20,442 nucleotides of DNA from an uncultured virus (IMG/VR IMGVR_UViG_3300045391_007423) (IMGVR_UViG_3300045391_007423), one strand, 5' to 3'; shown: positions 576 to 18,504, counted from the first letter of the stretch. Translations and numbers: made by a program. Notes: generated by a model not told the origin, from the letters alone.

Positions 576-1616
576 ATGTCAAAGACAGGCATTGCTGGTG
601 CGATAGGGTTCGCGCACCAGAGTGGCAAGGATCTTGCTCAGACCTCCTCGGTCCTCTATCTTCCGGCAACCTCCGTCGGAATTAACCCGAACCAAAATGC
701 GCAGACACTCCCGGCTGAAGTCGGAGGGGACTACTTTTTGCGCGGATCGTATAAAGCCAGTGCCATGGGTACTGGTGATATCGCCTTTGTGGCACGTCCT
801 AATGGACTGGGCCACCTGCTTTTGATGCTCTGTGGTGTTGATACGGTGGTCAATACTTCGGCCAGCGTGTACCAGCACACGATGACTCCATTTGCGGTTG
901 GCGCTGGTGATCTCCCCTGGTATTCGGTCTTCAAAGATGTCTCGACGGTTCTGGCTGAAGAGTACATCAATACCCGGATACAGTCCCTCAAACTGGATGT
1001 ACCAAAGTCAGGTATCATGACTGGCTCGGCAACGCTGGTTTCAACTGGCTTCTCTGAAATCACTTCCGCCTCTCTTGGTATCAAGACCTTTGATAACTCA
1101 CCACAGTTTCAATCCTGCCTGGCCTCCGTCGATTTTAAAAATGAAGCGACCGGGACAACCATCTCATCTGAGGCGGTCAAAGTCGAACGGGTCTCCATGA
1201 GCTTTGATAATAGCCTGAGCAATGATGAGTTTGCAGTCGGAAGTTTCTTCCTGGAAGATATCACGCTTCAGCAGCGTACTGTTACCGTTGATCTGGATTA
1301 CGTCATTCGCTCACGTGAGATGTATGAGGCAGTGTACTACGGTGGCGCTGGTGATGGTTCTGGAACACAGAGCTGGTCCCCACAGCTCTATCGTGGCAGC
1401 CTGGGTCTGACCATGAATAGTTTAGTCAACATCCCAGGGACAACCACTCCCTACAGTTGCCAGTTTCTTTTCCCTGGCCTGGACTTCATGAGCCTGCCAA
1501 TCTCTCTCTCCGGGGCTGAAGTCGTCCGTGGCACTCTTTCCACACAAATTACTCTTGGCACGTCCGGTGCAGATCGCTTCACCGCGATTTTAACCAATGG
1601 CATTGCCAGCTACTAA
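576..1616 (+). CDS. Major tail tube protein (346 aa, siphovirus type)
   Basis: GGGAG RBS at 565-569. The protein is Gly/Ser/Thr-rich and beta-strand-like, with tube-type segments (GDIAFVARPNGLGHLL, YQHTMTP..LPWYSV, QRTVTVDLDY). It lies directly upstream of the frameshifted chaperone pair. Confidence 0.8.
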   Translation: MSKTGIAGAIGFAHQSGKDLAQTSSVLYLPATSVGINPNQNAQTLPAEVGGDYFLRGSYKASAMGTGDIAFVARPNGLGHLLLMLCGVDTVVNTSASVYQHTMTPFAVGAGDLPWYSVFKDVSTVLAEEYINTRIQSLKLDVPKSGIMTGSATLVSTGFSEITSASLGIKTFDNSPQFQSCLASVDFKNEATGTTISSEAVKVERVSMSFDNSLSNDEFAVGSFFLEDITLQQRTVTVDLDYVIRSREMYEAVYYGGAGDGSGTQSWSPQLYRGSLGLTMNSLVNIPGTTTPYSCQFLFPGLDFMSLPISLSGAEVVRGTLSTQITLGTSGADRFTAILTNGIASY

Positions 1617-1639: not shown

Positions 1640-2332
1640 ATGGGTGATTTGATCCATGTTCCCTGGAGTGTGGAGTACCCCTATCCGACACCCCCGTCGC
1701 TTTCCTCCACTCCCGCGAGGCTCTTTGCCTCATCTCAATCCGTTGTCCCGGAACCAGAAGAGGAGACATCTTCTCCTGTTCCCCCACACTTCTCCTCTGC
1801 ATCAGAGCCCTCAGATGAGCCTGCATTATCATCTGCCGCCAACCTGGATGAGAAGCAGCACGATGAGCCACGACAGACAGAGCGAGACCACCTCCGCGCA
1901 CACTTGCGCCATTCAATGATTAAAGGACAGAAACCCATGCGTGCACGAACAAAATTTATTGGGGAAGTTGTTGATTTCCCTTCTCCTATTGATAAGACCG
2001 TCAACTTTGGCATTCGTCGTCTTCCCAACCGTGATATCCTCTCCTACCGCGATAAGAACGCCGTCGTACGCTTCATCTCTGAAGAGGGCAGCGAGCGCTA
2101 TATTCAGGAGAAAGAGTATCCAGCAGGCTCAATGCGTGTTGATACTGTTCAGATGGGCCTGGCGACCTGGAACATTCTTGATGAAGAGAGCAAGTCAGTC
2201 GAGATCAGTCGAGATGCCATCCTGGACTATTTGGACCCACGTGAACTGGATGCCATCTATGATAAGGTCATGGATGTCAATCCGATCCTCAGTGGGCGAG
2301 AAGAGGAAAAAAACGACTCCAAGAACGACTAG
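1640..2332 (+). CDS. Tail assembly chaperone (lambda gpG analogue); possible second in-frame start at 1937
   Basis: AAGGAGG RBS at 1624-1630. It follows the tube gene and ends ..EEEKNDSKND*, with a slippery heptamer under the KN codons. The C-terminal ~130 aa are acidic and chaperone-like. Confidence 0.78.
   Translation: MGDLIHVPWSVEYPYPTPPSLSSTPARLFASSQSVVPEPEEETSSPVPPHFSSASEPSDEPALSSAANLDEKQHDEPRQTERDHLRAHLRHSMIKGQKPMRARTKFIGEVVDFPSPIDKTVNFGIRRLPNRDILSYRDKNAVVRFISEEGSERYIQEKEYPAGSMRVDTVQMGLATWNILDEESKSVEISRDAILDYLDPRELDAIYDKVMDVNPILSGREEEKNDSKND
2308..2314 (+). promoter_or_regulatory. Programmed -1 ribosomal frameshift slippery site A AAA AAC
   Basis: X XXY YYZ heptamer in the correct phase of the 1640-2332 ORF. 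The -1 frame is open from 2266 to the stop at 2665-2667. Confidence 0.82.
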
Positions 2333-2667
2333 AGCCGCAGATTGATGCCTTGATGGAGGGGATGACGCATATGCAGTTTGTGCGGTATTGCCAGATGCAA
2401 GAGCTTGACCCCTCTGTCTATGAGGCGATTGTCTATCCTGATGCTATTATCCTTATCTGGTTAGAATGCAAACGGCAGGCCAATCCCTGGACAGGAGTAC
2501 CTGCACTACCAGAGCCAGAGAAGGGGTATCTTGATCAGGATGCCGAGCTAACCCTTGCCTTTGAAGTCTTAGATGAGATCCAGGCGAAACATGAGGAGGA
2601 GGAGGAGAAGCGCAAGAAGCTCAGAGAGCAGGCGGCTGCCATGTTCAATCCAGCAGGAAAACACTGA
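2314..2667 (+). CDS. Tail assembly chaperone frameshift extension (gpT analogue; C-terminal part of the GT fusion)
   Basis: The -1 frame reads RLQERLEPQIDALMEGMTHMQF...GYLDQD... with no stop. The ORF track starts it at 2350 only because that is the first start codon. The predicted fusion is 342 aa from 1640. Confidence 0.75.
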   Translation, partial: RLQERLEPQIDALMEGMTHMQFVRYCQMQELDPSVYEAIVYPDAIILIWLECKRQANPWTGVPALPEPEKGYLDQDAELTLAFEVLDEIQAKHEEEEEKRKKLREQAAAMFNPAGKH

Positions 2668-4685: not shown

Positions 4686-4796
4686 GTCATTTCTTTTGTA
4701 GCGGGTACACTATCACTGGGACCATCCCCGGTCCCATGGTCCTTTCCTTTCTTTCTTTTCTCTCCTGGTGTTTCTGGTTGGTCTTTCCTTTCTTTT

Positions 4797-4957
4797 TTGT
4801 TCGTGCACTGTGTCCGTCGCCCTTCTCTTTGCCCTCTCGCTACCCTGCCTCTTTCAGGTCTTGCTCCGCACCTCTGGCTTCCCCCAGAACACAAGAGCAG
4901 CCGTCGTGGTAGGTGCCGGGAGAAAAGGGAAGGACGACGGACGCCGAACACGAGCGA
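4797..4957 (+). other. Long nested imperfect inverted repeat (rod-like RNA/DNA hairpin) upstream of the giant gene
   Basis: Nested pairings: 4797-4805/4949-4957 (two G-U), 4812-4830/4924-4942 (17/19 Watson-Crick), 4840-4844/4908-4912, 4845-4848/4897-4900, 4859-4863/4892-4896, 4873-4877/4884-4888. Confidence 0.6.
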
Positions 4958-5040
4958 ACACACAGCAGAACCACACAGAGCACACACAGAGGGTGTGACC
5001 GCTCTTCTTCATCTGGCTGGTGTGTAGAAAGAGGATGTGC

Positions 5041-8000
5041 ATGACCACCACACCACGACACCATCATAGCGCTCATCAAGCCCACACTATTTTTACTCCT
5101 ACCACCACTGCTGTAGAGAAGGCTGCCATGCAAAACGAACCACATCGCCCACCAACCGATCCGGTCCTTCGTTTCCGCGAGGGATCAGGGACGTGGGGAC
5201 CACGCACAGCACTGCCCATGGTTGATCCTGAAAAGGTGAAGCAGCTTGAAGCAAAAGCTGCATCCCTTCAGACACCTACGCCTTCTCATGTGACAATGCA
5301 GTCACACGCACTACCAACCGTTACTCGCGCTGATGGCACTCTCGAGCCGATGATCCAGCCAGCGAACTATGCCTCACATGCGGATTATCAGCGAATGCAG
5401 AGGCTCTATGAGCAGCATGCTTCTATGCAGAATATTGCAGCCGGGGCGACTCCCTATACCGAGATCCTCAAGGAGCAGCAGTTCAACGCGCCACTTCGTA
5501 CAGGTGAGCTTCCCTACGATAAAATCAAACAGATCGCCGCCAAATCTGAGCAGTGGGTGCATGCCGGTTCTATTGAGCGGAAGCAGATCGCCGCTGAGAT
5601 CAAAGCGCTGGCCTATGGTGATCAAACGCCTGGAAGTGAGAACTTCAGCCTCGCACCTCAGCAGGAGCAGCTTCAGACGCGTTCCCAGTATCTTGCAAAG
5701 CAGGAGGCCGCCCGGCAGCAGATTGAGCAATGGTATGAGCAGACAGCTCGCAATATCAGCCAATACATTGGCCGTCCCTTTACCGCCAGTGATCTTCGTG
5801 CGCTGATCCCGAACCTTTCTTTTGAGCAGATCCAGGCAGTGACCTCTCCCAACAACTACACGATCAGCTTTGCAGGTCCAGGGGCTGGTAAAACCACCAT
5901 GATGATGGCCCAGTACGTCAACGCCGTCTTTAACCAGGGGGCCGATCCCCTGGACTGGACGATCCTGAGTAAGACACGTTCGGCAGTCGGGGCTCTGGAA
6001 GATATGATCAAGAAGCTGACGCCTATCCTTCCAGAACTCTCAGCCGTCCCACAGGACCAGTTAATCTTCCCTGGCATGACAGAAGAGGAACGTCTTGCCA
6101 AACGGCAACGCATGTTCCAGACGCTGGATACCTTCTCCATTCGCTCGCTTATACACCCCGATGCCCAGGGTGTGCGTCCTATTCGACGCCTGACCGGCAA
6201 CGATGCATTGAATATGCTGCCAATTGCCAAAGGTGATGATGCGTCTTCAACCAGAGATTATCTGGAGAAGGTCATACGCAACCAGGGTAAGAGCACCAGA
6301 TACAATGATCCGAATGTACTTGATGAGTATATCTCGGAGACCAAGGGTGGCTATCAGCCGCTCTATAACGAGCGCATGGCGCGTGGTGCCTCTATCCATG
6401 AAGCGGGTGACTGGGATGTACGACAGCAGCTTGATCCCGATCATGTACTCTACCTCTATGAGAAGGCCCTGGCTCATGCCCCTGGCTTTGAGATGCCTGA
6501 TCAACAGGGGCCACTGCGCGATCTGCATGATATGAATATTCTCTTCCGAGAGGCGGCTGAGAAGGGTATGCTGCCTCAGATGGGCAACTACATGGTGGAT
6601 GAGGTACAGGATAGTTCTGTTCCTCAGATCATGGGCCTGCGTCGTCTCTCATCAGCGAAGAAGCGTGGCTACTTTGGTGGTGATATGGGCCAGCAGGTAG
6701 TGCCTCATCAGTATCGTATCGATCAAGTGCTTTCCCATATGTTTAAGAATGCGGCATCGACTCACACCCTGACAGGCAATAACCGTTCAGGGGCCAATAT
6801 CGTGGCCCAGATCAATGCGATTAACGCCAGTGCTGCGCTCAATGGCACTGGGAAGAGTCCAATGCAGGTGGCCGCCCAGGATATCTCCTCGTTGCCCCCA
6901 ACCTATAGCATGCAGCAGGACGTTCCTGCCACCTATCGGCAGATGATAGCTGATTGGATGAAGGTCATGCGTACCTCACCACAGCACATTCAGGCGCGTA
7001 TGGATACCAGAGAGCCGGGGGAGCCGCTCTTTCATCAGGGGATGGTACAGCCTCAGCGTGCCCCGTTTGTCTTTCAAATGGGCAAGCAGGGGCGTAATGT
7101 CTTCCTCAATGAGATCCTGCCCCAGGAACTGCGCCGTGGTGGGATGGATGAGGAGCATATTGGACGTTTCCTTCGTGAGCATGTGACCAATGAGACCCCG
7201 CGTGATGAGAACAGTGATAAGCTGCATGCCTTAATGATCCAGCAGGTCCGATCACGCTCGACCGATCTTACTTTTGCCGATGCCACTCGTGGAGGTATGT
7301 GGGATACCACTGGCTATATCCGCAATATGTATACGATGCTCTCTCGTGCACGAATACAGAACCGTATCTATGCGTCGGCGACGAACTTCCCATATTCACG
7401 GCAGCACAATGTTGATCCTGTTGAATTGGGTAGCTTTCTTCTTCCTCCAGGTTTTGATGCCTGGACACAGGGAATGGCTGAGGATCTGGTCAGTCGGCAA
7501 GGGCTGAGCCGCCAGGATCTCAAGCCACAATTACAGGATCTCCTTGATCTCCCTCCGGTCTTCCATCACGTCCCACCCAAACAGGTTGCTCAGGGCGCGG
7601 TGACTCAGGCATATACCGATCGGGTGCTCGATATGCTGCCTGTCTATCAGGCTCAGGTTGGTGAGGGAAGTGGAATTACCCAGGATCTTCAACGACGACC
7701 AGGACGAAACACTGAGGATGAAGAAAACCCGGATCTTGATGACGGGCTCAGCACAAAGGGATATATCAGTGCATCGGTGGTCTCAGGGCAGACACGACGC
7801 GCTGGTGATCATTTCCAGATGGAGCTGATCAGAAATAAGATCGAGGATCTGGCTCGTAACGGCTCTCAAGAAGCGATTCCAGAGTTCTCTGACTTCTTTC
7901 GAGATGCACGTGCCATGTCTCAAACCGTTAACCGTCGCCAGCGTTACATGCCGATGCTGGTGGCCCCTGACTCTGATCTGAGTCTTCCTGATTACACGCA

Positions 8001-11000
8001 ACTGGCTGAGCGAACTTCGGCAGTCATTCCTGAAACAGATAACAGTCAGAAGGACTTTGCGCCTCGCGACCATGGCAGTTATCAAGGAGCAGACTTTCTC
8101 AAGATCCGTCAGAACATGCGTGATCTGCTCAAGAAGAGCCCGGACTTCTATCTGGGTGATCAGCAGTTAAGCGCAACCTCACAGCAGTTCTATAACCATC
8201 CTGATCTGCTCAACATGCTGCGTCAGAAGATGATGCAGCGAACAGACCCCAGGGCACAGGATCTGCTCAAACGACTCAATGTCGCCCAGCGTGCCACACC
8301 AGTGATCAAAAAGTGGCAGGCGGAGCTGGATGATCTGCAACGGGGAACATTTCTGTACAACCGCAAAGATGAGGCAGGCGAGAAAATTTCTGTTCCACCA
8401 GAAGTGACTGAGCTAAATAATGCCATCGGGAAGATCCAGGCTGCTGAGCAGAGCAAAGGGCGTATTCCTGATCTTTCTCAGGCAGAGCTTGAAGCCTATC
8501 AGACGATGCTGGCCCAGCGTGTCCAGAAATACTACTCCCCTGAGCAGCAGCAGCGCCATGATCAACTGACCGCGCATCTCGCGCATGCCGGTGGACAATC
8601 AGCTCAGCAACTGGTCTCGCGGATTATTCATCCCACGATCAATCAGTATGATCCAGACCAGAAGCAGATGCAGCAAGTGCCGAGTCCTCACTACGATAGT
8701 GAGTTGTCCCGCTTCGCTCGCTATAAAGCCACCCAACTGATGGTCAATGCGAAGATGACGCCTGCGATGCTCCAGATGCTTGCTAATCGTGGTCTCTCGC
8801 TGATGCCTGGAATTGATAACCCGGATGCACGTAAGCATCTGCTTGACATCATTCATAGCTTCCAGGGAGGTCGTGAGGCGCTGCTGGGTTCTGGGATAGA
8901 TCAAGAAGGTATCGCGCTCAATGATGACATGCTGCAAGGTTTGCCGTTACAAGAACAGAAACTGCTCCAGCAGATGTTCTCCACTGGTGCTGGTGGGTAT
9001 CGGTCTCTGGGCAGCGACGATGCGACCACAGCGATCAATCAGCTTGTCACCGAGCGTGGCAAGGTGACACGTTTTAGTACCGATGATCCTGCCATTCCAA
9101 TGCAGTTCAGTCACCTGGCACCGGCTCTTACTGCCATCCAGGGGTATGCCTCTTCTCTTGAGGGCAATGTTCGCGGTACAGAAGGAGGGATTGCTGATCC
9201 TGACGCGGTAAGGGCGCTTCCTTCTCAAGCGGAAGTTACACGTCTTCAAGGGATCACTGGCAGTGATGCAACCGATTATCATCGACTCAAGGAGCTGGCT
9301 GACGAGCCGATCAGTGATGAGGATTTCCAGTTCCATTCACTCGGTTCCGCAACGCCTCTCTCGACCCTGGAGACGCGCTATACCGATATGCTGGGACTGG
9401 GACGTGCTCATCAATCGGGGAATGCTCTTCTGGGCAATGCGAGTCCTGATGCTCGTGAGTATCTGACCACGATCTCCAATCGTCTGGATACCGTTCAACG
9501 TATCCGGCAGGCGATGCAGAACCCGGATAATCATCTGCGCTGGGCTCAGACGCTCCGTGTGGTACAGCGTGCGACAACGGGTGAGGATGTCTCAAACCGG
9601 GGACTTCCACCAGAAGGTCTTTCACCCAAAGAGCAGAAGGCATGGATAAATGCGCCAGAGAATCGAGATCCCGTTCGCACACTCTTTGAGAAACGAACCA
9701 ATGATCTCTCTGGTGGCACACGAACAATGGACTCGCTCATTGAGTTCATCTCTGCCATGAACCAGGCCAGTGAGCACATTGAAAAGACAGGAACGATCCG
9801 GCGTGCCCATCTTGATCGTGTACTTGGGGCACTGCATCAGGACCCGAATGATCCTGCCTATACGATGCTGCGTCAACTGGAACAGCAGGCAGGATTTAGT
9901 ACCGGCAGAAGGAGTAAGGACCGTCATACAGAGATCCCTCTTTCTGCAATCACTGCCAATAGCCCGGCAGGTGATCGTGGTAATGCAGCCGCCCAGCTCA
10001 CTCGTGTGCCTCTGCTTCCTGGACGGGAGTATCGCTTCCGAGGTGGTCGCAAAGGCTACGATGATCTGACCTATACCCAGAACCAGCTTTTTGGGAAAGG
10101 AAAACAGATCTCCGCCAGCACTCATCTGGTTGGGACACTGCATCCTTTTGTCTCAGATGGAAAGGAGATTCCCTTCGGACTGGCTCAGAGCCTGGCAACG
10201 CATCGGAAGCACTATATGCTCTCATCACAGGAGACCAAAGCTTACGATAGTGCCAGCCCGGATATGCCACTGCGCCCACTATTGGAGTTCCGCACTCAGC
10301 ATGAAGGGCAGTCTGTCTCCTTCCCGGTGCATCCAGGCCAGCTTGAGATGATCCCAACCGATCGTTCGTCTCAGGCACAAGCTCAGCAGCAAGAGGCTCA
10401 GCGCTGGCAACAGGTTGCTGAGATCAATCGACAGCGTGAGGGTGGGGAGTCTGATGAGCGAATTGCCAAAGCTCAGGCAGCGGCCCAGCAAGCACGTCAG
10501 AAACGCATCAGCGATATGCAGGCGAACCGTGAGCACTTTATCCGTCGCAAACGGAATGAAGGACTGGCTCTGCTGAAGAAAGGCAGTATTCCAGCTCGAC
10601 CCTTCCAGGGCTTCTCTGGTGGCTATTCCCCTCTTGCCGCACTTCAGGAACGTCTTGCGGCGCTTCCACCAACAGTTGTCCGTCCACCACGTCCAGGTTT
10701 CGATCCATCCCGGCCCAAAAGTCAAGATATGTACGAGACCCAGGGGTATGATCTCTCGACCCTGCCTGAGCGTCCTGCTCGTAGTGAGCAGGGTCTCGGA
10801 CGTATTGATCCAAATACAGTATTCAGGTATCTACTTCAATATCAATGGCGCAATCGGGGCAACCCTGTCCCGAACTTCTCTCTGGATACCTTGCTTTCCT
10901 CATCGTTTTCTCCTTCGCTGGAAACGACACCACTCACCGATTATCAGCCTGTCCCGGATCATACATTGGGACTCTACCAGAGTGTGCCAGCTCCACAACT

Positions 11001-14000
11001 GCCACTCTCAGCCTACCAGCCGGTGCCAGCGTATTCTCTGGGACTCTACCAGAGCGTACCTGCATCGGTTCAGCGACCAGCACCGGAGCCTCCGACACGC
11101 CCCTGGTACAACGAGCCAGGGATGTTATTACCCGACGATGACGATCTCGAGAGCCTGATGGCGAATGCTCCAACCCTCGAAAGAGGGAAGGGGCTTTCGT
11201 CGTTTGCCCTCTCCAGCCTGCTACCCTCACGCGATCAGGTCGCCCCACTTTCACCACCAACAACAGCAGCACTTCAGTTTTCACAGATACAGCAGCAGTA
11301 TCCTGACTCCTGGTATCCTGCGCACATACGGTCGATCCCATCACGGTTGGGCTATGGCGAGGGGAACTATACGCCACTGCTGCTTCCTCAAACAATTGCC
11401 TCCCAGAACTACCCGGATCGCGGCAATGGGATCTATCGTGGCAAGGGATTTAAATTCTATCGTGGAGCTGAGACCCCAGGTGATCTGGCTGGTCCCGGTG
11501 GTTTTGTCATGCAGGGGCTTCCCTTTGATCCTCTGGCAGGTCCTGCTGAGGGAGTGCCTGCTGTTATTCCTCTGGGAGCACACCAGGAACCTGTTCCACC
11601 ATTAGGGCTTCCTGCTGGCCCACAACCGGCTGCACTGCTTCCTCAGCGTGCCCCTGGCCTTGCACAGAATCGTCAGGATGCTCTTGGGGCGCTTCGACTT
11701 CTGACAACAATGCCACGGACCATGCAGACAGCAACTGTTCGCCTGGCTCGCAATCAGATGACGCGGCCCAATCCGATGCCGAGTCTTCCTCCGATACAGC
11801 GTCCCCCACTGATGTTACCTTCACCCGGTCGAGCGGAGAACAGACGGCTGCGTGCACGTGGACTCAATCAGGCACAACACTTTTTGCGTGTTACCCAACC
11901 CGTTGAGATTGCTGGCAGTAATACAGCCGCCAGCGCCAAAACCATTCGTTTCCATCCGCTTTCATCTGACCAGCGGCAGGCCATTGATGATCCAGCCTAT
12001 CATCATATTTTTCAAGGTGGTCCTGGTGCAGGTAAATCGGATATTCTCTCATCCAAACTGCTGGATATGTTCTCCAAAGGAACGATCCATCCCAGTACCG
12101 TTGTCTCGACCTCTCCCATGCACTCTGGTGTCTCTGAGTTGAACGCTCGCTACGAACGCAATATCCGGCCACTGCTGCCAAACCATGGCTATAGCCTGCC
12201 AGCTCCACGAACCTTGCATTCTCTGGCAAGTAGCATTGTCTTTCCCCATGGTACGCCCTCACCACATCTGAGCGCGATTGGTCGAGGCAACGTCACTGGC
12301 ATTCTTGCTAATCCAACAGAAGAAGAACTCTCGCTGCTCGGACCCAAAGAGCAGGATGAGGAACGCGATAAGCAGTATCGTTTCCTGCGTCAGACACTTA
12401 TAAGCACCTTTCCCCATGAGGCAAATCTGCCGAAGAGTAATCAGGAACTTCAGTATGCCCTCAATGATATCGGTAATGTGAAGCTCAATCGCTATATGCC
12501 CGGCAGCGACTATGACGAACGTATGGCGCGTGGGCAGCAGGATATAACGGCTGGCAACTATACCGAGAATGGGCGACTTGCAGCCTACGAGACACAAATG
12601 CAGCAGCAGGGCTATGTAGACTTCAATGATCTACCAGCAATGGCTCAGCAGCTTATCGGCCATACTGGTGTCCAGGGTCTCCCTGCCTATTTACAGAGTA
12701 TGCGTGGCATGGTCGTTGATGAGGGACAGGATCTGGTCCCTGCCTTTCAGAAGCTGCTTCAGTCTATCCTCAGTGTTCTTCCGCAATCTCCACATATGCT
12801 GGTTTCCCTTGATCCTATGCAGCAGATTGTTCCTGGTGCCATTCCTGCGGAGAAGGTTATCCCGACCTATCATCAGATGATGCAATCGACGGGTCAGGGG
12901 ATCGCGCATCATCAACTCAATGAGAACTATCGATCCGATCAGGAAACGATTGCCTTTAATAATGCGATCCTGCGCACCAAAGCCATGGCAAACGATCAGG
13001 GGAAGAGTCCTTTGCAACGGCCCCCTGATCACATGCCGATCGCACGTGGGCGACCTCCTGAGTTTCTGCTGGCAAAGTCACAGCCTGCCGTCTACCAAAA
13101 AGCCTTCTCCAAGATGCTCGATCTCTCCGGGGTTGATCCTGCACGCATGAAACAAAACATTGAGCAAGGACAACATCCCTTTGAGGGCGTCGATTGGAGT
13201 CAACCAGGGATGACAAAGCCCGGTGATATTGTCGCCCAGTTTCCTATGCCAGCCGAGCGCGAGGTCTTTGAACATGTAGCCCCTGATGTCCTTCAGAACC
13301 GTCTGGGGGTCAATCAGATGCAGGCTCGTTCTGCCTTCCAGCAGATGTATCGCGCTGGCATCCCTGGCAAAGATAGTCGTAAAGACGAGCAAGAACTGTT
13401 TGCCAATCGTGGGGCCTTCCGTGGCCTGACCGTAGGACAATCACGTGGCCTGGATGCCAGATACGTCATGAGTGATGTTGGGCGTGTCGGCCAGTGGATT
13501 AATAATGAGAATGAAAGTTCCCATCTCCGCAACCTCTTTATTGAAGGGAGCCGAACCCAGCATGGTGGGCAGAACTTCTTCATGGCGGCAAGCAATCCCT
13601 TTAATAAGAGTCAGATGCAATCCTTCGTACGAGGAACACCCTTTGTCGATGATGGTGAAACAGTCAAGCTAGGTGGGAAGTCAATCCTGCCGAAGAATAC
13701 CACCGTCTTTGAACACTACCAGGGGCAGACCGTTCCCAATGGGTTTAAGGAGATCCTGGGTCTCAAAGATCAGGAACTGCAAGGTTTTACGAAACAGGGC
13801 CAACCATCGCCGTCACCACAACCATCGCCGTCACTGACGACCCCAACCATTGTTGACTCAACGCTGGCACCATCTCCTCCCTCCTCTTCTTCCACATCAG
13901 GAGGGCAACAGATTGATACGACACAACCTATCACAATTCATGGCAAAGATATCGTGGTAAATCAGTCTGGTGGTATGAGTCTTGCTGTTCCTTCATCCCA

Positions 14001-17000
14001 GGCACTTCCCTCACCAGCGCCAGCGAACCCGACATCCTCCTTCAGTGCAACGCCTCCCAGTGGTTGGGGTGGTGGACCCTTATCCGGGAAACAGATCTAT
14101 GATCAGATTACTAATCCTACCGGCACTTCACCCTCCTCTCCCTCTTCTGGTCAGGGTAGTAGCAGAAGCACTGGTCGTGGTGGAGGGAGCCGTTCAGGCA
14201 GTGGTGGTGGCCTTGTTTCAGTAGGAAACAGTAGTGGCGGTAATGCTGGGGATATCTTCATTAATGCAACTGGTGGTGGTGGCAGCCGCTCTGGTGGTGG
14301 AGGTGGTGGCAATAAGTTTGCCTCAACGATCTCAAACCTTGGGCGTACTGCCGCCCGTATTGGTTCTGAGATGCAGTTTGTGGGCCAGCTCTTCACCACG
14401 ATGACTGGTGGGGCTGTCACGCAAGGATCACAGTATCGTCGCGCAACGGTTCCGATGACGGGTGGCGATGGCACCTCCGGGTTCTTTAACTACATGCAGG
14501 GCCAGCAAGGCATCGCTGCCTATCAGTCAGGGACGCTTCCGATGTATAGCGATACCCAGATTGCTCAGAATATGCAGGCAATGCTCGGTATGACCAATGC
14601 TCGCTTTTCTGGACAACAGACACTGGGGCCACTTACTGATATGCTCGGGATCTCCGCGATGACCGGGATTGATCCGACGCAACTGATGCAGCAGATGACC
14701 TATGCAACCTCCTATACCAGTCAATCACCACAGAGTAATCTCACGAACACTCAGCACCTTTCAGGTATGCTGGGCAGCCTCTATGGCAATAATCTGACGG
14801 CAACCAATGTCACCAATACGTTAGGGGCGCTGGATAACAGTCTGCCAACACTGCAAGGCATCTCTCCCTCAAGTAGTGATAATCAGACCGCCCAGTTGAT
14901 GTCCATCTTCAAGCTTGCCCTTGGCTCTGGAATGAGTGATAGCAGTCTGGGCAATGTCTCTACGACTGTTAATTCTCTGGCCCAGATGGGATCAGCTCCC
15001 AATCTTCAGCAGCAGTATGCCCTCTCCAATCTCTTTGGGTCCCAAAATATGACGGCCAATCCTGATCTGGTCAGCTTTAATACCGGCCAGCATCAGCGGC
15101 AGGAGCAACTGCAAGAACTGGATCTCCAGCAAAATATTGGCAATGGTCTCTCCCTGCCCAACTTACAGATCCAGATTTCTCAGGCGACTATCTCGATGGA
15201 TAAGGCTCAGCTTGATCTTTCCTCCTTTCAGCAGCAAGAGAATGTCGCCCAGTATGGCGCATCACAGTACCAGTATCAGATTGATCAGGCCCAGTACCAG
15301 GCATCGCAGTTTCAGCAGCAATACGCAACCGCTCAGTACAATGCCGCCGCCTTTAATCAGCAGTATAACCAGGCGCAATTTAACCAGAACCAGTATATGC
15401 AGAATCAGTTGTATGGCCCGATCGGTGCTGATGCCTCACGCACAAGCTACTACAACTGGCTACAAAATCAGCAGGCGACCCAGTATAATGGTCTTTCCCC
15501 TGAGTCGGCAACCCAGTTGCAACCCTCGCAAACCTTTGGACTCAAAAATGAAGAGTTCTATTCCTCGATGGAGAATCAGCGCAGTCAACTGGTGCTGAAT
15601 CGCTCACCGCTTTTAAGTGATGCTGCCTTCCAGAACCAGATGAAAAACATCGATCAGCAGGAGAACTTCTATAAGCAGGAGATCGATCTCCAGAATCAGC
15701 AACGCGCCTTCGACAAAGACTGGCAGCAGAAACAACTGGATGTCCAGAATAATCTGCTGACCTATCAGAAAAAGCAACTCTCCATTTCACAGAACCTGCT
15801 AGATATGCAGGGCAAATATCTTTCTATGCAGGGCAATCTGCTGACGATGCAAGGGAAGCAAATTACCTTACAGGGCAATGTCCTTGATATTCAGAAGAGT
15901 CAGTTTGGACTCCAGCAGGAAGAGGCTAGCTATGAGCAGCAAGAACTGACTCTGCAAAACACCTATTTGCCAACCGAGACTAGTGATATTGCTGCCATGA
16001 GCGTTGCGCTCCAGCAGCAAATTCAGGGAGAAGGACCAGTTAATGGAGGGATGGTTCAGCCAGATCAAATTATCCAGGCCCTTGCTGGTCAGAAGCTGTC
16101 TGATAAGAGTCTACGTGCCGAGGTCAATACCTTTGGTCTGCCCCCGGACCAACGGGACACCCTGGTCAAACTGGTAGAAGAGCTGCAAAAAAATGGGGGG
16201 AATATGGCTGATGTTGAGAAGCAGCTCAATAGTAGTAGTGATAAAGGACTCAATGCTGATCTCCAAAATATGATCAAGCAGGGTGCTTTCCAGGATCTGA
16301 CCCATACCGCTTCTGCCAGTAATGCCTCCCTTGATTTTGCCGGAGTTGGAGCAAACTGGCAGAAGCTGATCGGCTATGAACAGAGTATCGATACTTCCCT
16401 CAAAAGTATCGCGAGCTTCTTCAATAGTCGATCTCCTCTGCTGCTCTTCATTGGAGAGATCGGCAATATTCTGGGGCCACTCTTTATGATCATGGCAACA
16501 ATCATGAACTCCCTGGGCTTTTTCTCTTCATTGTTTGGTGGGGGAGCTGGCGCGGCTGGCGCGGGGACTGCTGGATTAGGCGCAACCGCTCTGGGAGCCT
16601 TTGGCCTTGCCGGTGGCGTTGGTGTCGGGATGATTGCCAATCTCATCAATGGCTGGACGCAGTGGACACCCCAGAGTGGGATCAATGATCAGCAGCAACA
16701 AGGGAATTTCTGGAATGTCGTCAATCCGTTCCAGGGCATGTATGACTCATCAGCCGGGATGAAAACATGGTGGCAAGCCTGGAATGATCCGGCCTATGCA
16801 GATAAAGCCTATGGAAAAGGGACCGGAAATATTGTCAAAGGTGTTGATAACACCCTTGGTGGATGGGGACAGGACTGGAATAATGCCTGGAACCCGAACT
16901 ACTGGAATAAACAGCAACAACCTGCCACATCAGCAGCACCATCGGCCCCGGTCAATCGTCTTGCTGGCCTTGCTGGCAATGCGAGTTCTTCTGTCCCTCC

Positions 17001-18504
17001 ACAATCCTGGTGGGATGCCACGATCGGCGGATTTTTCAGCAAGACACTGCCTGGTCTCTGGAATAGTACGGCTGGTACCTTCTTTGGAAAAACATTTCCA
17101 GGATGGCTCTCAGCGCTCAACAATGACTGGAATTCGATGTGGGGGAATGTTGGTGCCGGCTGGAATACCTTCTTTAAGAAAACACTCCCCGGCTGGACAT
17201 CGGCGCTCAGCAATGATTGGAACAAAATGTGGGGGAATGTTGGTGCTGGCTGGAATACCTTCTTTGAAAAGACCGTTCCTGGCTGGGGATTAGCAATAGA
17301 AAAAGGATGGAATGCTCTTTGGACTGGTATTGATAATTATTGGAACACCTTCTTTGGGAAAACAGTACCCGGCTGGGGATTAGTAATAGAAAAAGGATGG
17401 AATAATTTTTGGAGTGGTATAAGTACAAACTGGAATAAATTCTGGTCTGATCGTGGAAATGACTGGAATAAATGGTGGACGACCGCTGGCAAATGGTTTG
17501 CCAGCATTCCTGGAGATATTTCCACCTTCTTTACCAAGACCCTGCCAGATGAACTGAAAAAAGTGCTCAGTAATATTCCAGTCGTTGGTGGTCTCGTGAG
17601 TGGTGGAAGTGCCCCACCAACAGGAACAGGCAACGCACCAGGGCATCCTGGGTTCACAGTCACCCATGTAAACCAGGAATTTGGCGTGATGAATGCCCAG
17701 CGTGGCTATCATGCAGGTGTTGATCTGGCTGCCAGTCAGGGTTCTCCGCTAGGAGAGATGATTGGGGGAGAAGTCACAGCGGTTGGCTGGCATCCCTGGG
17801 GAGGTGAAGTTGATGTTGCTATCCCAGGTGGCATGATTGAACGGTATGTCCACCTCTCTGGCTTTGGGGTGAAACCCGGTGATGTCGTCAAGCAAGGTGA
17901 TTTTATTGGCCTCTCTGGTGGAGGCACCCCTCAATCTGGACTGGGCTATTATAGCGATGGGCCTCACTTACATATAGAATATGATGCCGGGCAGCTCTAT
18001 GGAACAGCCGTTTCTCCCTGGAATGTCTGGGCCGCCTTTAGTGACTACAACATTGCGAAATGGATTGATGGCTCCTATCCAAAGGCAAAGGCAGAGCAGG
18101 GAGGTCAGAGTGGCGCTGGTAGCCCAACGAGAATGCAACAGTATCTGGCGACAGGCGCAGCCCCAACACGTGAGGCACAACCTCTGCGTGGACATCTGGC
18201 AACAGGTGGTATCGTTAATAAGCGCTCTCGTGTTGAGCTAGGTGAGCAAGAGCCAGAGGCTGTTATTCCGCTTTCAAAGCTCGCTGATGTTATGAATAAA
18301 TTGCCGATTGGTCTGGGTGGGAGTGGTACCAGTAGCTCAACGAACAACAGTAAGAGCATCGTCATTCAGAATCTCATTGGCTCTCTCACTATACAGACCA
18401 ATGGGGGCGGATCACTTTCAGAGACAGAGCAAGATGAGATTATGGCTCAACTCCTGGATCTTATCTCAGCGGCAGCGCAATCCCTCATGGGCAAACTTCA
18501 GTAA
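5041..18504 (+). CDS. Giant tape measure protein (~4,490 aa) with two N-terminal UvrD/PcrA-like SF1 helicase domains and a C-terminal M23 peptidase
   Basis: Uninterrupted 13.5-kb ORF between the chaperones and a distal-tail-like gene. AGAGGA RBS before the ATG at 5041 (5020, 5035 and 5128 are alternative starts). Tape measure hallmarks lie in the last ~1,400 aa, and two full sets of SF1 motifs lie upstream. Confidence 0.85.
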   Translation: MTTTPRHHHSAHQAHTIFTPTTTAVEKAAMQNEPHRPPTDPVLRFREGSGTWGPRTALPMVDPEKVKQLEAKAASLQTPTPSHVTMQSHALPTVTRADGTLEPMIQPANYASHADYQRMQRLYEQHASMQNIAAGATPYTEILKEQQFNAPLRTGELPYDKIKQIAAKSEQWVHAGSIERKQIAAEIKALAYGDQTPGSENFSLAPQQEQLQTRSQYLAKQEAARQQIEQWYEQTARNISQYIGRPFTASDLRALIPNLSFEQIQAVTSPNNYTISFAGPGAGKTTMMMAQYVNAVFNQGADPLDWTILSKTRSAVGALEDMIKKLTPILPELSAVPQDQLIFPGMTEEERLAKRQRMFQTLDTFSIRSLIHPDAQGVRPIRRLTGNDALNMLPIAKGDDASSTRDYLEKVIRNQGKSTRYNDPNVLDEYISETKGGYQPLYNERMARGASIHEAGDWDVRQQLDPDHVLYLYEKALAHAPGFEMPDQQGPLRDLHDMNILFREAAEKGMLPQMGNYMVDEVQDSSVPQIMGLRRLSSAKKRGYFGGDMGQQVVPHQYRIDQVLSHMFKNAASTHTLTGNNRSGANIVAQINAINASAALNGTGKSPMQVAAQDISSLPPTYSMQQDVPATYRQMIADWMKVMRTSPQHIQARMDTREPGEPLFHQGMVQPQRAPFVFQMGKQGRNVFLNEILPQELRRGGMDEEHIGRFLREHVTNETPRDENSDKLHALMIQQVRSRSTDLTFADATRGGMWDTTGYIRNMYTMLSRARIQNRIYASATNFPYSRQHNVDPVELGSFLLPPGFDAWTQGMAEDLVSRQGLSRQDLKPQLQDLLDLPPVFHHVPPKQVAQGAVTQAYTDRVLDMLPVYQAQVGEGSGITQDLQRRPGRNTEDEENPDLDDGLSTKGYISASVVSGQTRRAGDHFQMELIRNKIEDLARNGSQEAIPEFSDFFRDARAMSQTVNRRQRYMPMLVAPDSDLSLPDYTQLAERTSAVIPETDNSQKDFAPRDHGSYQGADFLKIRQNMRDLLKKSPDFYLGDQQLSATSQQFYNHPDLLNMLRQKMMQRTDPRAQDLLKRLNVAQRATPVIKKWQAELDDLQRGTFLYNRKDEAGEKISVPPEVTELNNAIGKIQAAEQSKGRIPDLSQAELEAYQTMLAQRVQKYYSPEQQQRHDQLTAHLAHAGGQSAQQLVSRIIHPTINQYDPDQKQMQQVPSPHYDSELSRFARYKATQLMVNAKMTPAMLQMLANRGLSLMPGIDNPDARKHLLDIIHSFQGGREALLGSGIDQEGIALNDDMLQGLPLQEQKLLQQMFSTGAGGYRSLGSDDATTAINQLVTERGKVTRFSTDDPAIPMQFSHLAPALTAIQGYASSLEGNVRGTEGGIADPDAVRALPSQAEVTRLQGITGSDATDYHRLKELADEPISDEDFQFHSLGSATPLSTLETRYTDMLGLGRAHQSGNALLGNASPDAREYLTTISNRLDTVQRIRQAMQNPDNHLRWAQTLRVVQRATTGEDVSNRGLPPEGLSPKEQKAWINAPENRDPVRTLFEKRTNDLSGGTRTMDSLIEFISAMNQASEHIEKTGTIRRAHLDRVLGALHQDPNDPAYTMLRQLEQQAGFSTGRRSKDRHTEIPLSAITANSPAGDRGNAAAQLTRVPLLPGREYRFRGGRKGYDDLTYTQNQLFGKGKQISASTHLVGTLHPFVSDGKEIPFGLAQSLATHRKHYMLSSQETKAYDSASPDMPLRPLLEFRTQHEGQSVSFPVHPGQLEMIPTDRSSQAQAQQQEAQRWQQVAEINRQREGGESDERIAKAQAAAQQARQKRISDMQANREHFIRRKRNEGLALLKKGSIPARPFQGFSGGYSPLAALQERLAALPPTVVRPPRPGFDPSRPKSQDMYETQGYDLSTLPERPARSEQGLGRIDPNTVFRYLLQYQWRNRGNPVPNFSLDTLLSSSFSPSLETTPLTDYQPVPDHTLGLYQSVPAPQLPLSAYQPVPAYSLGLYQSVPASVQRPAPEPPTRPWYNEPGMLLPDDDDLESLMANAPTLERGKGLSSFALSSLLPSRDQVAPLSPPTTAALQFSQIQQQYPDSWYPAHIRSIPSRLGYGEGNYTPLLLPQTIASQNYPDRGNGIYRGKGFKFYRGAETPGDLAGPGGFVMQGLPFDPLAGPAEGVPAVIPLGAHQEPVPPLGLPAGPQPAALLPQRAPGLAQNRQDALGALRLLTTMPRTMQTATVRLARNQMTRPNPMPSLPPIQRPPLMLPSPGRAENRRLRARGLNQAQHFLRVTQPVEIAGSNTAASAKTIRFHPLSSDQRQAIDDPAYHHIFQGGPGAGKSDILSSKLLDMFSKGTIHPSTVVSTSPMHSGVSELNARYERNIRPLLPNHGYSLPAPRTLHSLASSIVFPHGTPSPHLSAIGRGNVTGILANPTEEELSLLGPKEQDEERDKQYRFLRQTLISTFPHEANLPKSNQELQYALNDIGNVKLNRYMPGSDYDERMARGQQDITAGNYTENGRLAAYETQMQQQGYVDFNDLPAMAQQLIGHTGVQGLPAYLQSMRGMVVDEGQDLVPAFQKLLQSILSVLPQSPHMLVSLDPMQQIVPGAIPAEKVIPTYHQMMQSTGQGIAHHQLNENYRSDQETIAFNNAILRTKAMANDQGKSPLQRPPDHMPIARGRPPEFLLAKSQPAVYQKAFSKMLDLSGVDPARMKQNIEQGQHPFEGVDWSQPGMTKPGDIVAQFPMPAEREVFEHVAPDVLQNRLGVNQMQARSAFQQMYRAGIPGKDSRKDEQELFANRGAFRGLTVGQSRGLDARYVMSDVGRVGQWINNENESSHLRNLFIEGSRTQHGGQNFFMAASNPFNKSQMQSFVRGTPFVDDGETVKLGGKSILPKNTTVFEHYQGQTVPNGFKEILGLKDQELQGFTKQGQPSPSPQPSPSLTTPTIVDSTLAPSPPSSSSTSGGQQIDTTQPITIHGKDIVVNQSGGMSLAVPSSQALPSPAPANPTSSFSATPPSGWGGGPLSGKQIYDQITNPTGTSPSSPSSGQGSSRSTGRGGGSRSGSGGGLVSVGNSSGGNAGDIFINATGGGGSRSGGGGGGNKFASTISNLGRTAARIGSEMQFVGQLFTTMTGGAVTQGSQYRRATVPMTGGDGTSGFFNYMQGQQGIAAYQSGTLPMYSDTQIAQNMQAMLGMTNARFSGQQTLGPLTDMLGISAMTGIDPTQLMQQMTYATSYTSQSPQSNLTNTQHLSGMLGSLYGNNLTATNVTNTLGALDNSLPTLQGISPSSSDNQTAQLMSIFKLALGSGMSDSSLGNVSTTVNSLAQMGSAPNLQQQYALSNLFGSQNMTANPDLVSFNTGQHQRQEQLQELDLQQNIGNGLSLPNLQIQISQATISMDKAQLDLSSFQQQENVAQYGASQYQYQIDQAQYQASQFQQQYATAQYNAAAFNQQYNQAQFNQNQYMQNQLYGPIGADASRTSYYNWLQNQQATQYNGLSPESATQLQPSQTFGLKNEEFYSSMENQRSQLVLNRSPLLSDAAFQNQMKNIDQQENFYKQEIDLQNQQRAFDKDWQQKQLDVQNNLLTYQKKQLSISQNLLDMQGKYLSMQGNLLTMQGKQITLQGNVLDIQKSQFGLQQEEASYEQQELTLQNTYLPTETSDIAAMSVALQQQIQGEGPVNGGMVQPDQIIQALAGQKLSDKSLRAEVNTFGLPPDQRDTLVKLVEELQKNGGNMADVEKQLNSSSDKGLNADLQNMIKQGAFQDLTHTASASNASLDFAGVGANWQKLIGYEQSIDTSLKSIASFFNSRSPLLLFIGEIGNILGPLFMIMATIMNSLGFFSSLFGGGAGAAGAGTAGLGATALGAFGLAGGVGVGMIANLINGWTQWTPQSGINDQQQQGNFWNVVNPFQGMYDSSAGMKTWWQAWNDPAYADKAYGKGTGNIVKGVDNTLGGWGQDWNNAWNPNYWNKQQQPATSAAPSAPVNRLAGLAGNASSSVPPQSWWDATIGGFFSKTLPGLWNSTAGTFFGKTFPGWLSALNNDWNSMWGNVGAGWNTFFKKTLPGWTSALSNDWNKMWGNVGAGWNTFFEKTVPGWGLAIEKGWNALWTGIDNYWNTFFGKTVPGWGLVIEKGWNNFWSGISTNWNKFWSDRGNDWNKWWTTAGKWFASIPGDISTFFTKTLPDELKKVLSNIPVVGGLVSGGSAPPTGTGNAPGHPGFTVTHVNQEFGVMNAQRGYHAGVDLAASQGSPLGEMIGGEVTAVGWHPWGGEVDVAIPGGMIERYVHLSGFGVKPGDVVKQGDFIGLSGGGTPQSGLGYYSDGPHLHIEYDAGQLYGTAVSPWNVWAAFSDYNIAKWIDGSYPKAKAEQGGQSGAGSPTRMQQYLATGAAPTREAQPLRGHLATGGIVNKRSRVELGEQEPEAVIPLSKLADVMNKLPIGLGGSGTSSSTNNSKSIVIQNLIGSLTIQTNGGGSLSETEQDEIMAQLLDLISAAAQSLMGKLQ
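5815..7383 (+). other. SF1 (UvrD/Rep/PcrA-like) helicase domain 1 within the giant ORF
   Basis: Q motif LSFEQIQAV; motif I GPGAGKTT (5875-5898); Ia ILSKTRSAV; Ib TLDTFS; II VDEVQD (6595-6612); III GDMGQQ (6679-6696); IV LTGNNRS (6769-6789); V-like LMIQQVRS; VI RNMYTMLSRAR (7321-7353). Confidence 0.85.
10930..11064 (+). repeat. Intragenic tandem repeat with a 72-bp (24-aa) period, about two copies
   Basis: PLTDYQPVPDHTLGLYQSVPAPQL / PLSAYQPVPAYSLGLYQSVPA; TGGGACTCTACCAGAG recurs 72 bp apart. Confidence 0.8.
11959..13590 (+). other. SF1 (UvrD/Rep/PcrA-like) helicase domain 2 within the giant ORF
   Basis: Q motif LSSDQRQAI; motif I GPGAGKS (12019-12039); Ib RTLHSLA; YVDFNDL; II VDEGQD (12715-12732); III LDPMQQI; IV LNENYRS (12916-12936); V LTVGQSRGLD (13426-13455); VI RNLFIEGSRTQ (13528-13560). 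Confidence 0.87.
13795..14310 (+). other. Pro/Ser/Gly low-complexity linker between the helicase part and the tape measure part
   Basis: QPSPSPQPSPS (16-bp repeat at 13801 and 13819), PSSSSSTSGG, GRGGGSRSGSGGG, GGGGSRSGGGGGG. Confidence 0.75.
15730..15897 (+). repeat. Four 42-bp (14-aa, double-heptad) coiled-coil repeats in the Gln-rich tape measure segment
   Basis: KQLDVQNNLLTYQK / KQLSISQNLLDMQG / KYLSMQGNLLTMQG / KQITLQGNVLDIQK. Confidence 0.75.
17080..17439 (+). repeat. Four 90-bp (30-aa) Trp/Phe-rich tape measure repeats in AABB order
   Basis: Units start at 17080, 17170, 17260 and 17350, each FFxKTxPGW...W...W......WN(T/K). Units 1 and 2 share SALxNDWNxMWGNVGAG; units 3 and 4 share GLxIEKGWN. 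Confidence 0.88.
17695..18030 (+). other. Peptidase M23 (LytM/lysostaphin-type) domain near the tape measure C-terminus
   Basis: HAGVD (HxxxD, 17710-17724), YVHLS, VKPGDVVKQGDFIGLSG and GPHLHIE (HxH, 17965-17973): all zinc ligands are present. Confidence 0.92.

Follow-up and report, generated by a model that had tools for sequence, protein, structure and literature searches.

The giant gene of the window, the 20,442-nucleotide stretch of uncultured-virus DNA analyzed here, is predicted to encode the tail tape measure protein (TMP) of a tailed phage, whose N-terminal two thirds hold two homologous UvrD-type domains (d1 and d2) with a middle module between them. A single ancient duplication most likely gave rise to both, and they appear as SF1A domains in which nucleotide chemistry has been retained but the DNA ratchet and 2B have been given up, asymmetrically between the duplicates. 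We propose, as a reading that we hold to be plausible and about evenly poised, that the giant is an injected-NTPase TMP, the duplicated pair being ejected with the tape measure and active at genome entry, and not working as a Rep/UvrD-type dimer.

The Giant Gene and Its Tail-Gene Setting

The features of the window are listed in Table 1. The giant ORF is mapped from 5020, its true start probably lying at 5131 or 5218, with the database gene call beginning at aa67, and the next-longest ORF of genome G000 in a map of non-overlapping ORFs has at most 566 aa. In the window and in contig L003 alike, the genes run in the order tube, chaperone pair, giant and Dit-like gene, the giant being the longest tail gene; the Dit-like gene lies directly 3' of the giant in both and nearly so in L002. 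G and T were assigned as chaperones from their position and a frameshift signal, because they gave no family match: the −1 frame continues from the heptamer AAAAAAC at 2308–2314 into ORF T, and the two are likely joined there by a −1 frameshift. G and T are 44% and 50% identical, respectively, to the L003 genes at the same position. The Dit-like protein, assigned from position and size because it likewise had no family match, is about 50% identical to its L002 counterpart. In the window, T is separated from the giant gene by four small ORFs on the reverse strand; the terminase, portal, and major capsid genes are located elsewhere in G000. The sheath family PF04984 had no match in two of two genomes, and PF10145 had none in G000 or G001.

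Table 1. Features of the window and of the giant protein.
Feature	Position	Strand	Remarks
Tail tube protein	576..1616	+	PF18906 E 9e-12; phrog_290 E 9e-18
Predicted tail assembly chaperone pair	1640..2667	+	G (1640-2332) + T (to 2667)
Giant ORF, 4,494 codons	5020..18504	+	Predicted TMP with N-terminal cargo
SF1A domain d1, aa262-800	5803..7419	+	GPGAGKT, DEVQD, NNRS, SR; PF00580 E 6e-10
d1 IV-V segment, ~130 aa	6826..7221	+	Contains motif IVa; common to d2; stands in for most of 2B
Middle module, aa1290-1800	8887..10419	+	Conserved in 14/14 complete homologues
Pro-rich linker	10420..11952	+	14% Pro; mean identity 0.08-0.17, many gaps
SF1A domain d2, aa2312-2870	11953..13629	+	GPGAGKS, DEGQD, NYRS, SR; PF00580 E 3.5e-14
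d2 IV-V segment	12973..13413	+	Homologous to d1 IV-V segment (profile scores)
TMP-like body	14230..17649	+	Gln-rich region, hydrophobic stretches, Trp-rich repeats; conserved 14/14
Hydrophobic stretches of TMP-like body	16435-16497 and 16582-16638	+	
Trp-rich 30-aa repeats in TMP-like body	17069-17420	+	
M23 peptidoglycan peptidase domain	17707..17985	+	PF01551 E 2e-13; HAGVD, GPHLH motifs present
C-terminal segment	18217..18501	+	GG..GE..PEAVIPL motif; conserved 14/14
Predicted distal tail (Dit-like) protein	18540..19079	+	Immediately after giant gene
Peptide pair YNERMARG / YDERMARG	aa449 / aa2498		
Peptide pair QQVVP / QQIVP	aa558 / aa2601		
Peptide pair NGTGKSPMQ / DQGKSPLQ	aa608 / aa2659		
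Peptide pair GMVQP / GMTKP	aa674 / aa2730		
Peptide pair IRNMY / LRNLF	aa767 / aa2836		

The giant protein of the window itself had no match to any TMP family. Its L003 homologue (P0003) matched the TMP family phrog_167 (E 8e-72) and four other TMP families, and the L002 homologue matched phrog_4070 (E 2e-6), with these matches located for the most part in the C-terminal hydrolase region. Against phrog_167, the L003 giant matched best in its C-terminal part, equivalent to window 18217..18501, where the GG..GE..PEAVIPL motif is one typical of TMP C-termini. A hydrophobic segment above threshold was present in 11 of the 14 homologues; M23 motifs were present in 11 of the 13 checked, and the other two (P0003 and P0004) carried an SLT-like domain in place of M23. 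The original prediction was silent on the host protein being a predicted tape measure protein.

Both UvrD-like domains are present in all 14 complete homologues (3,891–6,121 aa), with the order d1, middle, d2, TMP body, and C-terminus kept throughout. Low-complexity linkers lie on both sides of d2, and a GQxVPxGF-like motif is found downstream of d1 and of d2 alike. Searches of Pfam, PDB, and ESM Atlas with the middle module yielded nothing usable, and it had no match to the 2B and nuclease parts of 97 free helicases; its C-terminal part looked by eye like the RecD SH3 domain, but this likeness did not hold up. An assembly artefact as the source of the fusion was rejected: the independent contig L001, whose coverage excludes d1, is identical over window 9935–16534 and 16610–18504 apart from a 75-bp in-frame gap, and the entire fusion is a single ORF in L002 and in L003, which speaks against such an artefact. 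Searches for relatives of the giant found none in GTDB genome contigs and only ordinary helicases, at 21–39% identity, in GenBank phages; tube and Dit queries found no relatives among viral contigs, a single-sequence d2 search among proteins of 306–975 aa gave nothing at E ≤ 0.01, and no report of a helicase–TMP fusion was found in the open-access literature.

Common Origin of the Two UvrD-Like Domains

The paralogy of d1 and d2 had been predicted from five peptide pairs said to lie outside the universal motifs. All five were found in the giant ORF (5020..18504, + strand) within the span assigned to the two domains; four occupy identical columns of a 30-domain alignment, and the fifth agrees in four of five columns. 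Two of the pairs, however, do not lie outside the motifs: QQVVP/QQIVP starts with the Gln of motif III, and IRNMY/LRNLF leads into motif VI, the motifs having been located by aligning the domains with E. coli UvrD. The YNERMARG pair is identical at 7/8 positions in the window protein and at 2–4/8 in the other 13 homologues. The near-identity of the quoted peptides is peculiar to the window protein, and the real paralogy signal is at the profile level. Recent gene conversion between d1 and d2 found no support, as the sole DNA match (21/24 nt, E 0.002) lies at the YNERMARG site and arises from the 7/8 peptide match there.

By BLASTP, d1 and d2 are 23% identical over 385 columns (E 1e-11), and profile–profile comparison gave a probability of 99.9% (E 7e-35, 479 columns). 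The d1 profile scored 16/16 d2 sequences at 127–229 bits and the d2 profile 14/14 d1 sequences at 102–243 bits, whereas the top scorer among 97 free helicases reached 74.5 and 95.7, respectively. The IV–V segments agreed: the d1 segment profile scored all 16 d2 at 33–69 bits, with 4.9 for the best free helicase (n = 97) and 6.0 for the best shuffle (n = 300), and the d2 segment profile scored all 14 d1 at 15–86 bits, with 3.8 and 5.0, respectively. With non-motif-region profiles, the 97 free helicases scored at shuffle level; d1 and d2 also share a 1B segment, for which none of the 97 rose above that level.

Trees of 222 core columns, in which PcrA, AddA, and Bacillus HelD references were left to profile and structure comparison only, joined d1 and d2 in a quick analysis of 71 rows (SH-aLRT 99) and in a careful one of 38 rows (100/99), although the d1+d2 stem is long (0.86–0.93), so that long-branch attraction may inflate this support. 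In the careful tree, support for d2 monophyly was weak (66/41, bootstrap without convergence). The sister grouping expected under duplication was thus recovered, yet one of two alternatives in the AU test stayed unrejected. This alternative, a constrained d2+P0024+P0028 tree (p-AU 0.069), would suit a separate origin of the domains, whether two neighbouring paralogues of AdnA/AdnB type were captured together or two helicases independently of each other, as would the nature of the nearest free neighbours, P0028 and P0024, which are UvrD + PD-(D/E)XK nuclease fusions (98/97, careful tree). Against it, the d1+P0028 grouping was rejected (p-AU 0.0013), no nuclease remnant follows either domain (no Pfam match to a PD-(D/E)XK or other nuclease downstream of d1 or of d2), and the derived IV–V segment, the 1B segment, and the downstream motif are common to d1 and d2 and absent above shuffle level in the 97 free helicases. 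By shared-segment profile scoring, a separate origin appears highly improbable and is largely refuted.

The predicted paralogy by duplication is well supported by the shared non-motif segments and by profiles that exclude the 97 sampled free helicases, and a common origin of d1 and d2 to the exclusion of those helicases is supported. Duplication within the gene is the simplest reading, and two single-copy genes, both remodelled beforehand and then recombined, would fit equally. One already remodelled domain would have been duplicated before the phage family diverged. Among the homologues found, there was no confirmed case of a single-domain TMP; P0009 (d2 + TMP, 2,248 aa) looks truncated.

Nucleotide-Handling and DNA-Contact Residues

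Both copies had been predicted to keep their catalytic residues under selection. This holds for the Q motif, the Walker A K and T/S, the Walker B E, the motif III Q, and the Arg residues of motifs IV and VI, each present in 29/29 domains, and fails for the motif V Glu (6/29) and most ssDNA contacts. Of 433 gapless columns, 12 are invariant over the 29 domains, among them eight that correspond to the Q-motif Q, Walker A G, G, and K, Walker B E, III Q, IV R, and VI R. This invariance argues for selection on the nucleotide-handling residues, whereas dN/dS gives no support, since pS was 0.73–0.78 in 5/5 pairs, a saturation at which dN/dS is not computable. The Walker B D is kept in 27/29 domains, being replaced in 2/14 d1, and in motif V (TxHxxKGxE) T is found in 9/29, H in 0/29, and K in 1/29 (R in 25/29), with the Glu lost in both window domains. 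Both d1 and d2 are predicted to bind and hydrolyze ATP; because of the motif V Glu and Walker B Asp losses, some domains may hydrolyze it slowly or not at all.

The DNA contacts are largely lost. An aromatic residue is found at the W256 position in 0/29 giant domains versus 40/42 free helicases and at the F62 position in 2/29 versus 41/42; equivalents of R257 (1/29 versus 32/42), R355 (0/29 versus 34/42), and H560 (0/29 versus 42/42) follow the same course, and the Y254 position is aromatic in 5/29 giant domains. An aromatic residue two positions past the W256 site, found in 7/14 d1 and 3/15 d2, might stand in for the lost one. Erosion of the ssDNA-contact residues has gone further in d1 than in d2, which retains the equivalents of H91 (13/15), F189 (13/15 F or Y), and T89, and it looks, from these residues, as if the copies have subfunctionalised. 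Most of 2B is replaced in both domains by the short common segment, and the median R(IV)–R(VI) spacing is 184 in d1 and 206 in d2 versus 321 in UvrD (range 181–214 versus 321–324 in UvrD and Rep; some free helicases are short as well, with 149–665). AF2 models of moderate confidence, weak in the 2A half, suggest a tandem RecA-like fold with 1B in both domains. The d1 model (pLDDT 65.9) matched Rep best (Z 21.5, rmsd 10.3, 384 aligned), and the d2 model (pLDDT 68.2) had PcrA, Rep, and UvrD as top Foldseek hits and, against Rep, a VIA Z of 15.6 (rmsd 8.2, 341 aligned). The giant domains thus resemble UvrD, Rep, and PcrA in fold, motif order, and the Q, Walker A, Walker B, III Q, IV R, and VI R residues, and differ from them in that the Ia F, III Y-W-R, IVa R, and V H and E are largely lost, the motif V K is mostly R, region IV–VI is 110–140 aa shorter than in UvrD, and the domains sit inside a predicted virion protein.

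These features bear on the dimer rationale of the original prediction, in which a tethered Rep/UvrD- or RecBCD-like pair would unwind duplex DNA. The SF1A fold and ATP motifs of both domains, the contacts kept by d2, and the shifted aromatic in 10/29 domains are consistent with such a pair, as is the activation of Rep monomers by deletion of 2B, reported in one study (bioRxiv 10.1101/2024.02.20.581227). According to the same study, however, activation of Rep/UvrD dimers is proposed to act via 2B, and the motif III aromatic has to be present in one subunit or both, its loss abolishing unwinding by dimers as well. This aromatic is absent at its position in 29/29 giant domains, as are R355 and H560; the 2B dimer surface is replaced, and d1 and d2 are 1,019–1,819 aa apart across the homologues. 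The rationale fails to transfer, because the proposed activation runs through a subdomain that is replaced here, and we regard an unwinding pair as quite improbable. AdnAB and RecBCD also have two SF1-fold units, with possible asymmetry, but as separate subunits with nuclease domains.

HelD/HelR and Gabija GajB are SF1-derived NTPases like d1 and d2. As described in one preprint, HelD-like enzymes are without DNA-binding domains and use ATP for protein remodelling (bioRxiv 10.1101/2021.05.10.443488), a pattern of kept ATP residues and lost DNA contacts that the giant domains share. They might, in the same manner, act after entry on proteins of the host (RNA polymerase, RecBCD/AddAB, Gabija-type systems) or on nucleotide pools rather than on DNA, as a remodeller or defence counter-measure. 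Polyvalent proteins, very large proteins with several enzyme domains that probably enter cells together with invading DNA, also carry a UvrD-like domain in a few actinomycete plasmid examples; these domains closely resemble their cellular counterparts and are found in conjugative contexts, unlike d1 and d2, and "tape measure" does not occur in its main text (PMC5512222). No target-binding module was identified in the giant, and the domains score lower against HelD and GajB than against Rep/PcrA/UvrD both in profiles (39 and 22 versus 75 bits) and in structure (Z 13.8 and 12.4 versus 21.5). None of the HelD_BACSU, HelD_MYCSM, and HelR models was listed for the six giants scanned, PRK11054 reached 25–34 bits against a cut-off of 543, and no family model came near its cut-off. 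We consider this role unlikely.

Proposed Role of the N-Terminal Cargo

In the literature found, enzyme cargo on a TMP N-terminus is established only for the P23-45 group. Gp96 of Thermus phage P23-45 is a 5,002-aa TMP with an N-terminal virion RNA polymerase, whose proposed site of action while the genome enters is the TMP pore (PMC10770324). Like the giant, it combines an N-terminal DNA-handling enzyme with transmembrane and metallopeptidase domains further on, and its enzyme is without a bulky clamp domain just as d1 and d2 are without most of 2B. Unlike it, the giant, known from its sequence, carries two paralogous SF1A NTPase domains and the middle module, and no DFDGD-like motif is found in the 14 proteins; "helicase" has no occurrence in the main text of the gp96 paper. 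The giant family thereby adds a different TMP cargo, kept across 14 divergent proteins (median domain identity 27–30%).

For the injected-NTPase reading, tape measure ejection would carry d1 and d2 along to the mouth of the DNA-entry channel, probably with the M23 end first and the NTPases last. Once in the cytoplasm, they may hydrolyze ATP and help the arriving genome to be drawn in or cleared; a residual translocase would more readily be sought in d2, and d1 would serve as a remodelling or switch unit. The starting point for this proposal is the observed gene context, conserved architecture, non-motif paralogy, invariant nucleotide residues, lost ssDNA contacts, and shortened IV–VI region, and we infer virion presence, ejection order, cytoplasmic location, ATPase activity, and substrate. 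A more tentative and rather doubtful form is a TMP-borne ATP-driven import motor, in which two 2B-less SF1 units would thread the tail, refold where the channel opens into the cytoplasm, and pull in the genome without transcription, with a non-canonical DNA grip perhaps provided by the middle module; the eroded DNA contacts argue against any DNA-pulling role as well. To our knowledge, how siphophage genomes complete cell entry is unresolved, and an NTPase in a predicted virion protein makes the active-import model directly testable.

The N-terminal modules might instead fold in the producer cell, serve tail building or head–tail joining, and then be cleaved at the Pro-rich linkers. The low-complexity linkers bordering d2 would suit such an assembly-stage role, folded SF1 domains probably exceed the width of the tube lumen, and cleavage in assembly is described for lambda gpH (PMC12617516). 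We nevertheless find this role distinctly improbable: neither DFDGD-like nor HExxH patterns were found in the 14 proteins, and P23-45 gp96 is full-size in virions, with its large N-terminal enzyme retained (PMC10770324).

Identification of a Predicted Tape Measure Protein Carrying Two UvrD-Type Domains

The whole span that the original prediction had assigned to two duplicated helicase domains was found inside a single ORF of 4,494 codons (5020..18504), here termed the giant gene. Since the window protein matched no tail tape measure protein (TMP) family, and PF10145 was missing from both of the genomes searched, its predicted identity as a TMP rests on context, anatomy and homologues. The 82,442-base virus contig that includes the window (G000; estimated completeness 96%) carries terminase, portal and major capsid genes. 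Upstream of the giant gene lie a tail tube gene and then two paired genes containing a -1 slippery heptamer (2308-2314), and downstream lies a 179-aa gene conserved at the same place in the related contigs L002 and L003. The closing part of the protein combines hydrophobic stretches and Trp-rich repeats with a Gln-rich body and an M23 domain, and the L003 homologue matches TMP family phrog_167 (E 8e-72).

Searches yielded a family of 14 distinct proteins, each complete and 3,891-6,121 aa long, with the window protein among them. All of these (14/14) combine both UvrD-type SF1A domains (d1 and d2) with a conserved middle module, TMP body and C-terminal motif. Five shorter matches resemble fragments: P0009 was taken into the trees and counted as a d2 row, P0018 was used in profile tests only, and P0011, P0017 and P0019 were omitted together with the near-duplicates P0112-P0114. 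P0009 starts in the linker ahead of d2, where it is 45% identical to P0004, and may be a d2-only TMP instead of a fragment. A d2 query against 1.84 billion representatives returned the family down to E 5e-28, then a gap, and then ordinary UvrD-like proteins from E 2e-5. Family and structure matching of the middle module gave none, and an SH3-like lead for it failed.

Features of the giant protein and its neighbourhood
Feature	Position	Strand	Remark
d1	aa262-800 of giant protein
d2	aa2312-2870 of giant protein
Middle module	window 8887-10419		~500 aa between d1 and d2; kept in 14/14 homologues
SAM-dependent methyltransferase gene	window 19418-20365	(-)	comes after Dit-like gene

Probable Common Origin of d1 and d2

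The two domains share 23% identity over 385 columns (E 1e-11), with a profile match probability of 99.9%. The five peptide pairs quoted as evidence of paralogy were all found in the giant ORF, mutually aligned; two of the five touch universal motifs III and VI. As the YNERMARG pair matches at 7/8 residues in the window protein and at only 2-4/8 in the other 13 proteins, such hand-picked peptides exaggerate the likeness.

Profiles were compared against 97 free helicases from outside the family, namely 15 from the d2 search, 77 from a d1+d2 profile search limited to lengths of 283-1,259 aa and to a set of 7,996 candidates, and the E. coli references UvrD, Rep, HelD, RecB and RecD. The d1 profile detected 16/16 d2 rows at 127-229 bits (best free protein, 74.5), and the d2 profile detected 14/14 d1 rows at 102-243 bits (best free protein, 95.7). 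The strongest test used profiles of the regions between universal motifs alone. Cross-detection with the motif IV-V segment was complete (16/16 at 33-69 bits and 14/14 at 15-86 bits), with free helicases at no more than 4.9 bits and 300 shuffles at no more than 6.0. The 1B segment gave 16/16 at 11-28 bits in one direction and, in reverse, 10/14 at at least 11 bits, the other four being at shuffle level. A weak motif (up to 16 bits, without shuffle control) is common to the stretches after d1 and d2; comparison of the stretches ahead of them revealed no similarity.

On 222 core-motif columns, the sister grouping proposed as a check was recovered in a quick tree with 42 of the free proteins (support: d1 97, d2 99, d1+d2 99) and in a careful tree of 8+8+22 rows, its bootstrap unconverged (d1+d2 100/99, d1 99/97, d2 only 66/41). 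Of two constraints picked after the tree had been seen, d1 with the free helicase P0028 was rejected (p 0.0013) and d2 with P0024 and P0028 was not (p 0.069). The tree by itself is not decisive because its stem is long, a weakness from which the non-motif test is free. Taken together, the sequence comparisons indicate that d1 and d2 very probably share a common origin; separate capture of the two domains is highly improbable. Median identities of 27% (d1-d1), 30% (d2-d2) and 21% (d1-d2) place the duplication before the split of all 14 proteins, and its occurrence inside the giant gene is no more than the simplest reading. P0007 and P0008 are 96.5% identical in d2 and only 66.6% in d1 and 60.7% in the spacer, a sequence pattern that suggests module exchange by recombination inside the giant gene.

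Conservation of the Nucleotide Site and Erosion of the DNA-Facing Side

The duplication, though real, is the less surprising part of the system. Because synonymous sites were saturated, dN/dS was not computable. Among 29 domains, 12 of 433 gapless columns are invariant, and eight of the 12 fall in the nucleotide site, whose residue roles we take from UvrD/PcrA work (numbering of E. coli UvrD). The claim that both copies kept their catalytic residues holds for these eight columns and fails for the motif V Glu, retained in only 6/29 domains, a loss that, from the sequences, may weaken hydrolysis.

The DNA-facing side is, judged by residue retention, eroded. H560, a further residue of this side, is retained in 0/29 family domains vs 42/42 free helicases. 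The residues that PMC3797037 names as ssDNA contacts of the D. radiodurans UvrD are inferred to correspond to F62, H91, F189, Y254, W256, R257 and R355. Aromatic residues occupy the F62, Y254 and W256 positions in 2/29, 5/29 and 0/29 family domains vs 41/42, 40/42 and 40/42 free helicases, and R257 and R355 are retained in 1/29 and 0/29 vs 32/42 and 34/42. H91 and F189 are each retained in 13/15 d2 domains, and in 4/14 and 2/14 d1 domains, respectively. An aromatic residue two positions past the W256 site in 10/29 domains could be a stand-in, which would count against erosion.

The suggestion of a tethered pair working like Rep or UvrD dimers fits poorly. According to bioRxiv 10.1101/2024.02.20.581227, dimer activation is thought to operate via 2B, Rep monomers become active on 2B deletion, and a motif III Trp-to-Ala change abolishes unwinding, leaving weaker ssDNA translocation and ATPase. 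In d1 and d2 the IV-VI region lacks 110-140 aa relative to UvrD, and the motif III aromatic is missing. Because of these two features, a canonical unwinding pair appears quite unlikely, and the sequences fit better with an NTPase, perhaps a residual translocase.

No report of a helicase-TMP fusion was found in the accessible portions of the open-access literature, including PMC7824862, PMC5512222 and PMC8616854; the supplements of PMC5512222 may list this architecture. Enzyme-bearing TMPs are a kind already known, and the twin-NTPase cargo is a new variation on them; what deserves follow-up is that this cargo is conserved while its DNA face is selectively eroded.

Possible Role at Genome Entry

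PMC12617516 locates TMP C-termini at the tail tip and describes the ejected TMP as forming a DNA channel, leaving its orientation after ejection open. The M23 end would exit first and the NTPases last, so that the ejected NTPases would adjoin the end of the genome, on the hydrophobic segment's cytoplasmic side. An entry-stage, ATP-driven role of d1 and d2 on the incoming genome is the preferred reading, at about an even chance. A precedent for an N-terminal enzyme on a TMP is P23-45 gp96: as described in PMC10770324, virions contain the clamp-less N-terminal RNA polymerase of gp96 within the full 5,002-aa TMP, and a role at the pore during genome entry is proposed for it. Remodelling of host proteins or a defence counter-measure, for which bioRxiv 10.1101/2021.05.10.443488 provides the HelD/HelR biology, is less probable, and a role in assembly is quite unlikely.

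Variation around the Giant Gene

Read in the -1 frame, the AAAAAAC heptamer of the window leads into ORF T. The L003 homologue of T sits in the +1/-2 frame, beyond a run of G (about 3217-3225), so that relatives seem to use different types of frameshift. An in-frame 75-bp segment at window 16535-16609, within the Gly/Ala-rich hydrophobic stretch, is missing from the otherwise identical contig L001. In P0003 and P0004 the wall-hydrolase module has been swapped, as an SLT-like lytic transglycosylase domain replaces the M23 of other homologues at the C-terminus. In the window (3048-4987, minus strand) and in L002 (67-3978), insertions of small unrelated genes separate the TMP gene from the putative chaperone pair. 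L002 has further ones separating its Dit-like tail gene from the PKD-domain one (19116-20733), and L003 has none ahead of its TMP gene. In the linear G000 record, the head genes (minus strand) and the tail genes (plus strand) are ~40 kb apart (1-21026, 62576-81079); the record further encodes a C5 methylase and, at 59413-60516, an actin-like partition protein.
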